DNA of 64,000 nt from positions 91,142,001 through 91,206,000 of the forward strand of contig NC_086108.1 in assembly GCF_963921235.1 (NCBI RefSeq). Reading direction: 5' to 3'. The notes beneath the pieces are model-generated. The model ran no database searches, was not told where the DNA came from, and worked only from the letters and a program-made list of their open reading frames with translations. The stretch is from Mobula hypostoma (lineage: Eukaryota). Position 1 is the first letter of the stretch, and every line of letters starts with the position of its first letter. The translations under genes and the position numbers were made by a program. Below are positions 27,576-35,819 of the stretch, in pieces.

Positions 27576-28997
27576 AAAGATTGAAGGATTCAAAGGTTCA
27601 AAGTACTTTTATTATCAAAGTATGGAAGCAGTATACATCCCTGAGATTTGTCTTCCCGCAGACAACAACAAAACAAAGAAAACCATGGAATCCTACAAAG
27701 AAAGACATCAAACCCGCAACATGCAAAAAAAAAGAACAAATCACACAAATGGCAAAATCCCTCCTCAAGCACTGTATGTCCCACTCTCATCAGGGAGGAA
27801 TCTACTTAGCACTCATGTCAAGTCTATCTGACTCAAAAACTCGAGAAAGTCTGCAGATGCTAGGAATCAAAGCAGCACACAAAATGCTGGAGGAGCTCAG
27901 CAGGCCAGGCAGCATCTATGGAAAAAAATAAGCAGTCAACACTTCGGGCCGAGATGTCGACTATTTCCTCTTTTCCATACATGCTGCCTGGCCTAGTGAG
28001 TGTCTCCAGCATCTTGTGTGCGTTGAGTCGAAAACAGGTACTTTCCCCAAGCAGTAAGGCTGATCAACACCTCCACTCACTAACTCCACCACTACTTTAT
28101 TATTTCCTGACAGTCACCTTATGTACTGCCTAGCGTCACTTTATGGATATACAATCAATCTATATCTATAAGCTATCTTATGTATTTATATTTATTGTGT
28201 TTTTTATTACCTTATTCTTTATTTTTTCTCTATTTTTCATGCTGCACCAGATCTGAAGTAACAATTATTTCATTCTCCTTTACACTTACATATTGTCCTT
28301 TACACTCATAGGAAATGACATTGAACAATCTTGAATCTTGAATCTTATTAGATAGGGTCAATATACCAAGGGTTATAATTGCTCTGTAAAATGATAGTCG
28401 ATTCAAGCATGGATTTGCCAGAACAGGTCAGTTAGATACAGCTCTAATATAGACAGCAGATGCTTCTCTATAATCCAGGGGCCTTGTAGCAGATGCGCTT
28501 AGAGAACATTCACAAATACAAAATAATGTGCATTGCAACTTTATACAGTTTTATGGCCATTGTAAAGTTCTTTTCAAGACTGTGTATCTTTTTAACAACT
28601 GTATAATGTGCATCATAAAACAGGGATAAGATATAGCTGGAAGATCTTTTTAAAAGTGGCCTTTCACAGTTGTCAGCAGAGGTTCTAATTTATAACCATC
28701 ACTGGTGATTCCTTCAGGGCTCCTACTGATTAGCCACTCCCGCATCCTCCAAGGAGATGGAGACAATCGTGTAAAATTGACTTACTGTCCTCCATAATGA
28801 AGGAGAGTGAATATTATTCAGTGTGCTAATGGGGTACTGTTCAAAATGGGCCTGAGATTAAAACAAAAGCATTAAGTTTAAAAACTGAAAGGAATTAGAA
28901 AGCAGGGGGTTGGGGAGAAAGGTGATGTTGGGGAAAGTTTTATTAAGTCAAGGACCTGCCTAATGAATTACACTTAAGAAACAACTAGACGTAGTTG

Positions 28998-29186: not shown

Positions 29187-29230
29187 GTAGATATATTTGC
29201 TTGTGCTTTGTTAAAAACCAAGGTAAAATA

Positions 29231-29798
29231 CACTCACTGCCCACTTTATTATGTACAGGAGTTTACCTAATAAAATGGCCACTGCAGTAGAACCCAGTGT
29301 AGTCTGCTGCTGCTGTAGCCCATCTACTTCAAAGTTCGATGTGTTGTGCGTTCAGAGATGCTCTTCTGCAGAGCGCTGTTGTGACACATGATTATTTGAA
29401 TTACTGTCGCCTTCCTGTCAGTTTGAGCTAGTCTGGCCATTCTCCTCTTTCCTCTCTCATTAACAAGGCATTTTCACCCACAGGACTGCTGCTCAGCGGA
29501 TTTTTTTTTTTGTTTTTCACACCATTCTCTGTAAACTCTGGAGACTCGTGTGCATGAAAATTTCTGGAGATCAGCAGTTACTGAGATACTCAAATCACCC
29601 CATCTGGCACCAACAATCATTCCACAGTCAAAGTCACTTAGATCACATTTCTTTGCTAATCTGAGGCTTGGTCTGAGCAACAACTGAATCCCTTGACCAT
29701 GTCTACATGGTTTTGTGCATTGAGTTGCTGCCACATGTTTGGCTGAGTAGATATTTGCATGCATGAGCAGGTGTACCAGATAAAGTAGCCACTGAGTG
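29231..29798 (-). mobile_element. Tc1-type non-autonomous DNA transposon
   Basis: TIRs cactcactgcccactttatt / taaagtagccactgagtg with TA at the left end; transposase N-terminal remnant CDLSDFDCGMIVGAR..VSRVYREW. Confidence 0.85.
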
Positions 29799-29965: not shown

Positions 29966-30106
29966 GAAGTAATTGGCAGAACTCTGCCACATATTGGACC
30001 CTATAGAGTGCTGAATAACAAGGACCATGTGGTAGCATTGATTGATGAGGAGATGTGCATTAACTGTGGCAAATGCTACCTGACTTGTAATGACTCTGGT
30101 TATCAG
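29966..30106 (+). CDS. DPYD: Dihydropyrimidine dehydrogenase internal exon (equivalent to human exon 22), contains 4Fe-4S motif
   Basis: Translates [47 protein letters not shown]. Acceptor cttgtctag|, donor cag|gtaagg; 141 bp, phase 0/0. Confidence 0.98.
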
Positions 30107-30453
30107 GTAAGGAGACATTAGTAATGAGCACAATGTGTATTATCACTTCTGATTTATGAGGCATTTAGATGTACAAATTGAAATCCATGTGTATATCTAT
30201 TATAAGCAAATCTTCAGCAGGCTGCTGTTTCCCAAGTCCAACCAGGCTGAAGGCGATACACTCCACAGTAAATCAATTCACATTGGGAATCCTGAAAACA
30301 GATAAATGGATGTGAATTACCCATTTAAATCATAAACTCTTAAACCTAGAACTTCTACTGGAAAAATTGAATCAATGAGTTAACTCTTAGTGTTTATTTT
30401 AGAACAACATTGAACTATTTAGTGATGGATTCAAAATGGAAAAAATGGATGTA

Positions 30454-30967
30454 TACTCACTGGCCACTTTATTAGGTACCTCTTGTATGTTCATGGTCTT
30501 CTGCTGCTGTAGCCCATCACTTAAAGGTTTGACACGTTGTGGGATCAGAGATGCTCTTCTGCACACCACTGTTGAAATGCATGGTTATTTGAGTTACTGC
30601 CGCCTTGCTTGAACTTGTTTCGCCCTTCTCCTCTGACCTCTCACATTAATAAGGCATTTGCACCCCCAGAGCTGCCACTCACTGGATTTTTTGTTTGTTT
30701 TTTTTTTGCTTCATTCTCTGTAAATTCTAGGGAATGTTATGCGTAAAAATCTCAGGAGATCTGAGATATTCAAACCACCCTGTCTGGCACCAGCAATCAT
30801 TCCACAGTCAAATTCACGTAGATCACATTTGTCCTCTCTTCTGCTGTTTGGTTGGAACAACAGCTGAACCACTTGACCATGATTGCATATCTTTACGGAT
30901 TGAGATGCCGGCATATTAGATATTTGCATTAGCAAACAGGTGTACCTAATAAAGTAGCCACTGAGTG
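30454..30967 (-). mobile_element. Tc1-type non-autonomous DNA transposon, same family as 29231-29798
   Basis: TIRs tactcactggccactttattaggtac / gtacctaataaagtagccactgagtg; CDLREFDCGMIAGAR remnant. Confidence 0.85.
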
Positions 30968-31358
30968 TGATTCTTTATGGAATATTTACTTAGTCAGCAT
31001 CTTGCTTATAGCTTAATGGGGAAAATCACAGTCCCATTAGTTCCACAGATCTACAGATTGGGAAGTACTGTGTCACGGGATAATCTGGTTTCCTCCTGCT
31101 TCCAATAGGCATAAAGACTGATGGATTTGCCACAGTAATACCCCCTGATATATGTAATAGGAGAGGTAACAGGGATATGTAGAGAATAAAATAGATTTTG
31201 TGTGTTTGATGGTTGGCACAGATTTAGTGGGAAGAATGGTCTGTTTCCCTCATATGTGACTCTACGGTACAACTCTCCTATGCTTTCCAACTGCTCAAGC
31301 AACTGATCTTACTTCAAACTATGCTCTTCAAAGATTCAAAGTAATCTATTATCAAAGT

Positions 31359-31575
31359 TGTTGTGTATGTGGCCTGGTTACACAACAATGCTATTGACAA
31401 AAATGCTGGAGGCGGGAGTTAAGTTTCATGGTTCTTTACTGGCATAATCCGAACTCAGCACACACGTACTGATCAATACACACCTAATAGCGCATGCTCA
31501 ATAAGCACCTAATAGCACATGCAGCGACGTGTTAATAAAACATAAAGTAGTCCGTATTATAGGCTATACGGTTCA
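31359..31575 (-). repeat. 3' LTR of the SUDS3-carrying element
   Basis: Direct repeat of 34458-34655 with one extra ~25-bp internal unit (cacctaatagcgcatgc...); PPT adjacent. Confidence 0.95.
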
Positions 31576-31588
31576 CTCCTCCCCTTTT
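31576..31588 (-). other. Polypurine tract
   Basis: Minus strand AAAAGGGGAGGAG immediately precedes the 3' LTR. Confidence 0.9.
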
Positions 31589-32100
31589 ATTTTAATAGTG
31601 TATCAACTGTTTTTTTTTACTGGGACATTATGCTAAACAAATAAGTTTATCTTTAACATACAGTACAAATGCCTACCATTTGTTTACTTAGCAACTTAAT
31701 AATATCAAATTATAACAAGCCTTTTTTTTTACTTTTGGTCTAAGACCCATTTATACTCAAGTCTCGGGGGGGGGCGGGTCTTCTCTAGATTGTCCGGCAG
31801 TGAAGCAAATAGGTCTTCACTCTATTGTCTGGAATAAATTAAACAATCGACAAATTGTTCCAGCCATAAAGAGTAGTCACCTCCATCTTGCAAAGATGAT
31901 GAAAAGGTAAATGTTATTCTTAAAAATATGTACAATCATCAAAACTGAGATAGCATTGGAAAGAGTCTTCAAATAGTGTGTTCTTCAGTCTGTCAATGAA
32001 CTTGTTTGTTTTAATACAGATTTCCATATAAAAGTCATGAAAAGTTGACCTCTGAGCATAGGGAGTTAAGAAGATGTGCGCCTCCAACTTGCTAAGAGTT

Positions 32101-33032
32101 CTAGGCAGCAGATCACCTCCGTATAATGAAGACTCCTCTGTGTAGCTGTCCTAGATATATAGCATCTTTGTGCTATCACTTGTCTTCCTTACCCATATCT
32201 CATTTGTTCCAACTGAGCTAATTACACAGCCAATCTTCGTATTCTCCTTAGATTCCAAATAGATAGCCTGACCTTTATGATACCATCTCTTATCGTAATA
32301 TGACTTTCCATCTACTAATCGTGCTTCATATCTTTGTGCTGGTGATTCAGTAGGAGTGCTGAGGAGATGCTCAGGAGAGGACAGAGATGCTGGTCTTTTC
32401 AGAAGTTTAAGCTTATTGAGAGTTTGCAGATCTTCCATTATCTGTTCATCTCTTAACAAGTAATTTAACTGCGCAGATGCAGGTTTTCATTTTTGGTCTG
32501 TAATTGGAGCAGGGTCATTAGGTCTCCTCCTTAGTTTCCTAGTTATTATTGGCTTTACCTCCATAGAATCTCCTGTGATTTCCATTGTTAGCCTCTCATT
32601 CTCAATCATCTGTTTCTTTTCTTCTAACTCAATCTTTTTATCTTCAAATTCCTTCACTGCTGCTTTCTTCTCTTTAATATAATTCCTTTCCACTTGTTCT
32701 GTCTCCAGTTGCAGAAAAAGCTCTGCATTTGGTTTTCTTTCCTTGTATTGTTGGTCTAGTTTCTTCATCCTTTTCTGGTACTTCTGCAAAGTGCCTTCCT
32801 GTAACTACTGTAGCTGTCTTTTGAGAGATGTCAATTTCTCCTGGCACATATGCTCTTTTACTTCTAGGTAGTCTTCATCATCCCGCTTATTGGCAATATC
32901 TGTCTCACTGGCATCCTCTGTATCTTCATCTGAGTCACGGCCAATACTGCGTTCGTCCTCATCGTCGACGCTGTCTAGTTCCTCCTCTTCGTTTTAATAA
33001 TCAACAATGGGTGAGAGGAGAGCTGCAGACAT
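32101..33032 (-). pseudogene. SUDS3: Processed (intronless) SUDS3/SDS3 copy, Sin3 histone deacetylase corepressor subunit
   Basis: [137 protein letters not shown]. Colinear with vertebrate SUDS3; internal stops at 32994, 32805, 32487 and ~32113, frameshift near 32160. Confidence 0.96.
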
Positions 33033-33039
33033 CTTCCCC

Positions 33040-34273
33040 GCTGAGCTGCCCTCCTTTGTTGACACATCTAGTGCCTTGATAGTGTGCCAATCCAACTGGA
33101 TTTTCCTGAGCCATTCACGTCCCAGCAAAGGTGGTCCTCCATTTTTCAGTACATAGAGGTTCAGCTGCTGTGTTTTGTCTCTGTAGGTCACTGTCACTTT
33201 AATTTTACCTTTGGGATGCACTTTCTGTCCTGTGTAAGTTTTTAGCAGTAGTTTAGTTCATTTCAGAGGTATGTGAGAAAACAGTCATTTGTAGTCGTCT
33301 ACAGAGATCACGGTTAAAGCTGAATCTGTGTCCAACTCCATTTTCAGTCTCATACCTGCCACTTATGGAGTGATCCTTATTACTCTTCGATCATCTGTCT
33401 CTTTCACTCTCTGAAGTTGCAGACAAGACAATTCACTTTCGTCTGAGTCGTTTTCATCAGAACTACTTTCTTCCATTTTGTGTACATTGTTGTATTTTCC
33501 TTTCTAAATCTAAATCTAAATCTAATCTAAATCTAAATCTGGGGTTTCTTGTTTCTCTGTATTTTTTCCTTTTTCTGCTGTTGACTAGCTTTGCATACTC
33601 TGCCAGTGTGGCCCTGTTTGCCACAATTTCTGCATTCTTTGTCTTTAAACCAACAGTCATCAGGGTCATGTGACACGTTCCCACAATGGTAACATTTCTT
33701 TCCTTCATTTCTGTTCAGTAACATTTTATTCATAGCATATTCCAGAGATTTCTGTTGTATCTCTGAAGCACCCCGTGCTGCTGTTTCTGTTGATATTGCA
33801 ATGTTCAGTGCCTTCTCTAATGTAAGGTCTTTTTCACCCAGGAGCTTCTTCTGTGTGGTTTCACAGTGCACGCTACACACTAACTTGTCCCTCAATGTGT
33901 CTGATAGACGAGCTCCAAATTGACAATGTTCTGATAATTTGTGGAATTCAGCACAATATTCAGAAATGCTTTCATTTTTGCTCTGATTCCATTTGTGAAA
34001 TTTAAATCTTGCAGCAATGACCAGTGGTTAGGGGTTTAAGTGCTGTTGGAGAGTGTCTACTATTTGCTTGAACGTTTTGTCAGCTGGCTTTTCAGGGGTT
34101 AACAAGTTCCGTAGCAGCCCATATGTTTTTGCTCCCATAATACTGAGTGAGACGCTGGCTTTCTTTTCATCATCAACACCATTAGCATCACAATATACCT
34201 CCACTCTTTCAATGTAAGTTGCCCAGTTTTCAATGCCACTATCAAACACTGTAATGGTTCCAATCATTGCCAT
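33040..34273 (-). pseudogene. Gypsy gag plus aspartic protease, disrupted
   Basis: ORF pieces MAMIGTITVFD..WATYIER, RDKLVC, zinc knuckles CYHCGNVSHDPDDC and CRNCGKQGHTGRVC, protease MELDTDSALTVIS (DTG changed to DTD) and LLGREWL; frameshifts and stops. Confidence 0.92.
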
Positions 34274-34440
34274 CTTTGTTATGTTAATTTAGCCCTGTTC
34301 TCCTCTTGCTTCCTTTTTGACTCACATATCCTTTTTGTTAGCGCAACAAGCACACTCCATCTAGATGCATCTAAATTCTCTCTCTTCTCCAAGTGCCATT
34401 GTCAACTAAAACATGGCATTCTGATAAGATGTAGGTCCAT

Positions 34441-34454
34441 AATCCTTGTCGCCA
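34441..34454 (-). other. Primer-binding site, tRNA-Ser(GCT)-like
   Basis: Minus strand reads TGGCGACAAGGATT 3 nt inside the 5' LTR boundary; near-complement of the tRNA-Ser(GCT) 3' end (TGGCGACGAGGATG). Confidence 0.8.
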
Positions 34455-34457
34455 ATT

Positions 34458-34655
34458 TGTTGTGTATGTGGCCTGGTTACACAGCAATGCTATTGACTAA
34501 AACACTGAAGATAGAAGCTAAGTTTCATGGTTCTTTACTGGCATAATCCGAACTCAGCGCACATGTACAGATCAATGTGCACCTAATAGCGCATGCAATG
34601 ACGTGTTACTAAAACATAAAGTAGTCCCCTATTATAATGTAGGCTATACAGTACA
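34458..34655 (-). repeat. 5' LTR of the SUDS3-carrying element
   Basis: Starts tgttgtgtatgtggcctggttacac and ends gtaca on the + strand; roughly 89% identical to 31359-31575 by manual count; PBS adjacent. Confidence 0.95.
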
Positions 34656-35819
34656 AAAGTATGTATGCAATATACAACCCTGAGTTACATCTTTCCATAT
34701 ACAGCCACGATACAAAGAAAACCATGGAACCCATTTAAAGAAAAACATCAGACCTCCCAACACATAAAATAAACAAATTGAGCAAACAGCAAAAAAAAGC
34801 AGAAAACACAGAGTACAAACCATCGAATCATAAAGACATCGCAAGAGTCCAAGCATATTCAGTTCAGTTCAATCCAGCAGCGCGTCTCTCACCATCTGCA
34901 CTAGTCCACTCCAAGCAAAATTGAACAAAGTAGCACAAAAAGAGCAACCAGAAACCAGAAACACATCATTATGTGAAGTAGAGTCCAATCCACAAACTGC
35001 ATCGATTAAGCCTTGCTCAAGACTCATAGAGTCCAGCAGCATCGAGCAAGAGGGAAGGAGAAGGACTGTTCTGGAAGTTTTTGCATGCGGAATCCTAAAA
35101 CATGTTCCAGCATATACATGCATCTCTCAGTTTACTCTGTTTTCTACAGGTCAGGTTGGCACTTCGCAGAGTATTGAAGGATCTTTTCCCAACCTTAAGT
35201 ATCGTAAGGAAAACATTAAAAAGTTTTTTGGGAGGCATTTATGCCTTGTCATGAGGAGGATGCTGTAGCTAGCATATTATTGCCAACACCTGACTCACAT
35301 CTTGTTAACATACAGTTCCTTTGAGCGGCACACAGACATAACTGCCCAATCACCTCTAAACACAACCTTCAAAAAGGTAGGATAGACCTTTGTCAAGAAA
35401 GATTTTAAACCCCCAACCCTGGTGAGAAGGACATAAGCCACAATTGTGGCCTCCCTACAGCTTCTTGCATGGTGTAGATTAACTGGCCTTCCTTTAACTG
35501 GGATGCTTCAGAGTGCTAAGAGAACGTCGGAGCAGCACTCCAGTTATATCCTCTCTGTGGATTTTGGTTTGTAAGCTCTCCTTCCCCATGGCTGATGGAA
35601 GGTAATACAGCCTTCACGTTAACTCTGGATCTCCTGAAACTTTTCCAATTGACTACCAGCTCAGCTGTTTTTCACTATTCTTTTTTAAGAATGGAGTATT
35701 GTGATCAATTCATTAATGGGGCCTATTACCATTTTCATTATTATTTGCTTGGATGCAATGTTTCAGAGCAGGTTAGATCCAATTAGGAAATTGTTGAATC
35801 TGTCACATACGGGGTATAT

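Follow-up and report, generated by a model that had tools for sequence, protein, structure and literature searches.

A SUDS3-carrying Ty3/Gypsy family in Mobula hypostoma and its probable origin by LTR-mediated gene capture

How does a spliced host mRNA come to lie where a retrotransposon would carry its pol genes, and what became of it afterwards? This question is raised by a 64,000-nt stretch of Mobula hypostoma DNA (RefSeq assembly GCF_963921235.1, contig NC_086108.1, positions 91,142,001–91,206,000 of the forward strand; “the window”), where a SUDS3-bearing Gypsy element occupies positions 31359–34655 on the minus strand, with TG...CA ends and the target-site duplication (TSD) AAAGT on both sides. 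The element reads, in order, long terminal repeat (LTR), primer-binding site (PBS), leader, gag, protease, SUDS3, integrase tail with the Gypsy 3′ end, polypurine tract (PPT) and LTR. An earlier reading of the sequence (the original prediction) had proposed the layout LTR-PBS-gag-protease-SUDS3-PPT-LTR with an exact AAAGT duplication, and every one of these parts was located; its span of 31354–34660 does contain the element but also takes in the TSDs. We consider it probable that one LTR-mediated capture of SUDS3 founded a non-autonomous Ty3/Gypsy family, which helper elements then amplified with SUDS3 mainly as a passenger.

The window element is a non-autonomous derivative of a Ty3/Gypsy LTR retrotransposon, having the direct LTRs, TG...CA termini, short TSD, PBS, PPT, CCHC-type gag and aspartic protease of that group. 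Its gag-protease shares 60% identity with polyproteins that carry reverse transcriptase (RT), and its named database matches are “K02A2.6-like”; the Pfam matches to Retrotrans_gag (E 8.5e-5) and zf-CCHC both lie below the curated cut-off. As predicted, RT, RNase H and the integrase core were not found between protease and PPT of this copy. That interval holds only host mRNA and ~200 nt of Gypsy 3′ end: host 3′ untranslated region (UTR) had been thought to reach the PPT, and it is indeed present (31787–32100), but Gypsy sequence makes up the final ~200 nt ahead of the PPT. Both flanks are parts of a dispersed repeat, of which an uninterrupted copy lies at window 27600–27630 (1 match; 0 in 100 shuffles), and one sequencing-run contig links 31353 directly to 34656 (i.e., the flanks without the element), in agreement with the claim that they rejoin into an intact repeat.

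This copy is dead. Its gag-protease is split over several reading frames (gag start at 34273, protease remnant around 33332), its SUDS3 coding sequence (CDS) has four in-frame stops and a frameshifting 1-nt deletion, and its leader measures 177 nt vs. ~375 nt in most family copies. The CDS diverges by 5.7% from that of the host, with a family-wide 24-nt deletion near 32625, and 20 of the 192 sites aligned between its two LTRs (198 and 217 nt) are different.

The parent of the cargo is a single gene. A pattern for the eight codons missing from the copies has one match in the 3.48 Gb genome, and around it host SUDS3 extends as 12 exons over ~59 kb (contig G000:C78); the spliced product equals Mobula birostris entry P0003 except for an 8-residue alternative acceptor. 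Ten blastn pieces of the window copy fall, ordered and intronless, onto 11 of the 12 host exons, the 22-nt exon 9 fits the remaining gap, and all eleven host introns, one of them AT-AC, are missing from the copies, as expected of the intronless copy first described. The cargo thus comprises 20 nt of host 5′ UTR, the spliced 12-exon CDS and ~340 nt of 3′ UTR, and the captured host sequence stops within the 3′ UTR, ~200 nt short of the first AATAAA. Neither a poly(A) tail nor a TSD belonging to SUDS3 itself was found at the insert edges, where the original prediction had seen none; the longest word common to both sides is 5 nt and lies off the junction. Two 9-A runs are located in the Gypsy part, and the A-run does not occur in the host locus. 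In 20 of 20 copies, 24 nt (8 codons) are missing between two in-frame direct repeats, within the coiled coil whose structure is PDB 4zqa and which PMC8800102, in its available text, describes as the dimerisation region. The AT-AC intron is host intron 7 (minor spliceosome type; G000:C78:8398853-8395737) and was correctly removed in all copies.

Pol-bearing relatives, the putative helpers, occur in the same genome. Among 20 protease-end matches sampled on contig C1, 13 run into SUDS3, six into RT and one is interrupted. Four pol-type loci share the LTRs, plus PBS and PPT where covered, and carry RT, RNase H and integrase; in L056, L057 and L059 the domain order is protease-RT-RNase H-integrase, the helper protease profile match has an E of 0.004, and L059 and L060 end ~200 nt past the integrase tail, too soon for an env gene to fit. 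By comparison with these loci, the cargo replaced 2.72–2.79 kb of pol.

Mapping the breakpoints against parent and helpers, as had been proposed, located both edges of the replacement. At the 5′ junction, the exact run shared by helper and host is 7 nt in three of the four helpers and 10 nt in the other. At the 3′ side there are two junctions. In the short type, the host UTR is left after ~110 nt at a CAGAC/CAGAY word shared with the integrase tail (~5 nt); the long type, that of the window copy, has ~230 nt of extra UTR and rejoins Gypsy ~15 nt later. Neither type is derivable from the other by simple deletion, and either both came from a lost longer precursor or one arose via a second template switch. 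Long and short types form no supported clades in either of the two trees (the “short” label of L015 is unproven there, its match stopping between the two junctions). A 36-nt segment with an A-run follows the integrase stop (window ~31710–31750) in 18 of 20 chimeras.

The family is large. Counts were made by junction-pattern matching in the genome with reversed-pattern controls, and are lower bounds. The spliced junction of SUDS3 exons 3 and 4 gave 342 matches (control 0), the 5′ junction between protease and SUDS3 296 (control 0), the long 3′ junction 116 (control 0) and the short one 178 (control 1), while the helper junction between protease and RT gave 205 (control 0). Protease ends of any kind numbered 809 (control 8), of which ~260 were not assigned to a type. 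A first estimate of ~600 copies, based on 22 of 29 classified protease-end matches on C1, was biased and was rejected; the direct junction counts indicate ~300–350. A whole-element search recovered near-full-length copies at 86–92% identity on many contigs (best 38 of 2732 candidates scored). In the 14 copies with both ends, the TSDs comprise eight perfect 5-mers, four that are one letter off, one with a larger difference and one read one base off, and their sequences all differ from one another, so that the suspected multi-copy family is borne out both by the spliced copies and by the distinctness of 14 of 14 TSDs.

The copies record a short history. Across 20 full loci (L001–L020), the CDS differs from that of the host by 4.4–7.2%, and paired LTRs differ by 10.1% on average (14 copies). 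Because both trees are star-like and the host branch (0.017) is shorter than the median tip (0.038), we conclude that the capture was soon followed by one burst, at about helper depth. The gag-protease of the chimeras shows linked blocks of variants in mosaic arrangement, and no such blocks are seen in the SUDS3 part; of the gag-protease variants shared among chimeras, 19 of 29 recur in four helpers vs. 41 of 407 singletons. We infer from these sequence patterns that the mosaic gag reflects successive rounds of recombination with co-packaged members of the helper pool, the alternative being shared ancestry of the alleles.

Other features of the copies were noted in passing. LTRs come as ~198-nt or ~223-nt forms, distinguished by a 25-nt tandem unit, and the two forms are unlike within one copy in eight of 14 cases, which may be due to slippage or to intermolecular strand transfer. 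Two long-type 3′ junctions lie 3.3 kb apart on the same strand (G000:C76:11185889-11189615), which points to a tandem array of the element. Other repeats have since inserted into L013, L014, L020, L040, L042 and L053; one of them, in L013, is an apparent solo LTR of another family.

We place the capture within the Gypsy replication cycle because the copies share a 5′ junction with microhomology, the host sequence ends inside a UTR, the insert has no poly(A) or TSD, and the many copies have distinct TSDs; it was on such template switching that the original prediction had based its account, and the 7–10 nt of microhomology and the UTR-internal 3′ end agree with it. In the proposed mechanism, a spliced SUDS3 mRNA would have been packaged together with a Gypsy genome. 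During minus-strand synthesis, RT would have switched to the SUDS3 mRNA near the integrase end, and then back at the microhomology just past the protease, as the anatomy of the junctions suggests. The product would have retained LTRs, PBS, PPT, leader and gag-protease, with ~2.7 kb of pol gone; RT and integrase were presumably supplied in trans by pol-bearing relatives. The chimera would then have inserted at no fewer than 340 sites during a single burst while recombining with helper elements; all examined copies are now decaying. The spacing between protease end and SUDS3 start is divisible by three in 19 of the 20 copies, one uninterrupted frame of 560 residues leads from gag across the junction, and another of 385 residues goes from protease to the SUDS3 stop; since the frame is kept and open frames span the junction, the source element most likely encoded a Gag-protease-SUDS3 polyprotein. 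Such an in-frame fusion may have aided in cis, by keeping one long open reading frame (ORF) and letting Gag be translated from the RNA of the element itself.

Was the cargo itself under selection? Singleton changes in SUDS3 fit neutral decay, being synonymous in 25.8% of cases vs. 26.9% expected (p 0.68), and 19 of the 20 SUDS3 copies contain a stop codon. What is fixed relative to the host is ten synonymous and two non-synonymous changes plus the deletion. The ten amount to 5.1% of synonymous sites, and fixed UTR differences to 10 of 342; given the latter and a decay of 4–5% per copy, the fixed synonymous excess can be explained by the host lineage alone. The 10:2 ratio was rejected as a selection signal, being unpolarised without outgroup DNA, and so was the synonymous excess among variants present in at least three copies, which are all transitions with inconsistent copy sets (p 0.10 once transitions alone are counted). 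No robust signal of selection on the SUDS3 frame was detected in the 20 copies, where power is low, and the importance that the original prediction implied for a silencing-gene cargo did not emerge.

Several points nevertheless weigh against the capture of a mere passenger as proposed here. The set of 20 full loci is not random but consists of the top BLAST matches to the window copy. At the long 3′ junction the similarity amounts to 2–3 nt only, either 3′ junction may be the older one, and a search for a precursor with a longer host UTR returned none (only the parent matches exactly; eight other matches have three mismatches). The 36-nt segment is missing from four of four helper 3′ ends, and also from 140 kb of the host locus; the former places the exact donor lineage outside the sampled helpers. 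The shortness of the stem from capture to burst leaves the passenger tests with low power, and two weak hints of constraint exist: fixed CpG transitions are 3/18 synonymous vs. 0/38 non-synonymous (p 0.03, unpolarised), and doubletons in the first 100 codons number 16 synonymous and 18 non-synonymous (p 0.009 before transition-bias correction). The scant microhomology of the long junction would suit a different origin, in which a SUDS3 retrocopy made by a long interspersed nuclear element (LINE), or a DNA-repair patch, entered a genomic Gypsy copy, pol was deleted separately and the composite then spread; a 9-A run ~30–40 nt downstream would suit it too. Yet integrase-tail sequence separates that run from the host part, the run has no counterpart in the host locus, and the host sequence ends well before the first AATAAA. 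The edges of the insert have no TSD, the 5′ edge is the stretch of helper homology, insertion and pol loss have common breakpoints, and 296 copies share a single 5′ junction rather than independent 5′ ends. The junctions thus largely refute this origin already, and we regard it as quite improbable. An account by segmental duplication or by assembly artefacts has in its favour only the general risk attached to repeats; with distinct TSDs and flanks, 86–92% identity over many contigs, a single host gene and the same deletion in annotated proteins of two Mobula species, this idea can practically be set aside.

The rivals that concern the cargo accept the same capture. It is rather unlikely, in our judgement, that the cargo was useful, such that a SUDS3 moiety—released by the protease or made from its own start codon—disturbed or redirected Sin3-HDAC silencing and the family outgrew its helper. 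The whole CDS was captured in frame, the deletion is frame-preserving and lies in the crystallised dimerisation coil with the Sin3-binding and Tudor parts intact, and the weak synonymous excesses (fixed CpG changes, doubletons) point the same way, as does the report that SIN3A helps repress endogenous retroviruses in mouse embryonic stem cells (available text of PMC9410877). However, an in-frame fusion has a one-in-three chance, a deletion between in-frame direct repeats does not need selection, fixed synonymous differences are about what the host lineage alone gathers, and the excess among variants in at least three copies fades after transition correction. Chimeras do exceed pol-type elements (342 vs. 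205), but shorter non-autonomous elements commonly outnumber their helpers. It seems unlikely, too, though SIN3A's part in retrovirus repression makes it conceivable, that SUDS3 served the element as an anti-silencing factor, with the polyprotein supplying a SUDS3 whose out-of-register dimerisation coil poisoned germ-line Sin3-HDAC complexes and so drove a joint burst of chimera and helper.

How does a helper-amplified passenger family compare with known systems? LTR-mediated gene capture is already known, and what is unusual here is the scale. The LTR-mediated retrocopies of animals described by Tan et al. (2016, Genome Res 26:1663; available text of PMC5131818) resemble the present family in that a spliced host mRNA lies in sense orientation in a discontinuous LTR element with microsimilarity at the switch points, without poly(A) or TSD at the insert, and in secondary retroposition as a non-autonomous element. 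Those cases, as far as that text goes, are single- or few-copy, whereas at least 342 copies exist here and outnumber the counted pol-type relatives; the SUDS3 family combines an entire CDS in frame with gag-protease, two 3′ junctions and a mosaic gag, while co-transcription was shown for the published cases and our family is known from genomic anatomy. In maize Bs1, according to the available portions of PMC5131818 and PMC13317346, the internal region was likewise replaced by host mRNA with switch points common to all copies; Bs1, the amplified case presented in PMC5131818, numbers 1–5 copies, combines pieces of three genes and evolved into a chimeric gene that is transcribed and translated. 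In the SUDS3 family, by contrast, a single full-length gene is present in hundreds of decaying copies. In acutely transforming gag-onc retroviruses, replication genes are replaced by a spliced host regulator in frame with gag, and a helper is needed. The likeness is one of layout only (a host ORF in frame with gag, helper-dependent); the SUDS3 family differs in its Gypsy backbone, in having no env seen, in being germ-line fixed and in its corepressor-subunit cargo. If the cargo were functional, it would represent a gag-onc-like, anti-silencing strategy in a retrotransposon. The marks of LINE-made processed pseudogenes—poly(A) after the host polyadenylation site, a TSD and independent 5′ ends—are lacking here. 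A published description of a SUDS3-carrying Gypsy family was not found in the literature searched, a search that lay outside Repbase and Dfam.

The family is an unusually complete natural record of vertebrate LTR-mediated capture, with parent, helper, both breakpoints and several hundred descendants in one genome. It also bears on gene counts. A recent preprint (bioRxiv 10.64898/2026.06.26.734816, available text) places SUDS3 among the five parental genes with most retrocopies in cartilaginous fishes and relates such numbers to non-LTR elements and to germline availability plus selective filtering; LTR capture is not mentioned in that text, whereas the SUDS3 copies here descend from one LTR capture. 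The element family offers another explanation for the heavy apparent duplication of SUDS3 in cartilaginous fishes. With copies, parent and helper together in a single genome, it shows that what is counted as duplication of a host gene can be the copy number of a transposon. SLU7, also on the preprint's list, has one multi-exon locus only in the M. hypostoma genome. The available text of PMC13320880 does not mention SUDS3.

Protein databases are affected as well. Six annotated “SDS3-like” proteins of M. birostris and M. hypostoma share the family deletion and the same two substitutions, and one of the six starts with the protease tail; proteins of Hemitrygon, Pristis, Callorhinchus, Scyliorhinus and sloth have neither the deletion nor the two substitutions where the sites are covered. 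Public Mobula “SDS3-like” annotations (P0004–P0007, P0075, P0121, P0193) thus appear to be element copies, not genes, and the family explains these spurious entries. Among the best 120 matches to the 560-residue frame, none covers more than 66%, i.e., no annotated Gag-SUDS3 fusion protein was seen there. In five coded organisms, at least a quarter of the sampled element words are present; in a sixth, a 434-nt contig spans the junction, and in a seventh there is one read in 10.1 million raw DNA reads. Junction-spanning contigs also occur in runs X7, X17 and X19, where they are fragmented and diverged; their RNA nature is guessed, and they could be DNA or intronic read-through.

The coordinates of the window copy are collected in Table 1.

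Table 1. Parts of the SUDS3-bearing element and its target-site duplications, in window positions.
Feature	Positions	Strand	Host contig
Left target-site duplication, AAAGT	31354..31358	.	
3′ LTR, 217 nt, longer LTR variant with 25-nt tandem unit	31359..31575	-	
Polypurine tract, identical in pol-bearing relatives	31576..31588	-	
Gypsy-derived 3′ end (final integrase codons, 3′ UTR and the 36-nt A-run segment)	31589..31786	-	
Captured host SUDS3 3′ UTR, truncated; “long” 3′ junction at ~31787	31787..32100	-	G000:C78
Captured spliced SUDS3 CDS; stop ends 32101, start 33032	32101..33032	-	
5′ junction: microhomology (33045–33054) and host 5′ UTR, protease frame into SUDS3 start codon	33033..33054	-	
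Decayed Gypsy gag (CCHC knuckle) and aspartic protease, single frame by design	33055..34273	-	
Leader, ~200 nt shorter than in most copies	34274..34443	-	
Primer-binding site, identical in pol-bearing relatives	34444..34454	-	
5′ LTR, 198 nt	34458..34655	-	
Right target-site duplication, AAAGT	34656..34660	.	

The element probably lies in an intron of DPYD, because it lies 1.25 kb downstream of a DPYD exon ending in a splice donor; the element is antisense to that exon. The exon (window 29966–30107, + strand) encodes part of the 4Fe-4S region, residues ~923–970 of the solved enzyme. A later DPYD exon was not found in the window with two motifs, nor was a tRNA gene found in the window. A CTAAAT-type microsatellite lies in the gag region of the window copy (33494–33542). 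Two diverged copies of one ~520–570-nt element with terminal inverted repeats, at 29229–29798 and 30452–30967, resemble a non-autonomous DNA transposon.

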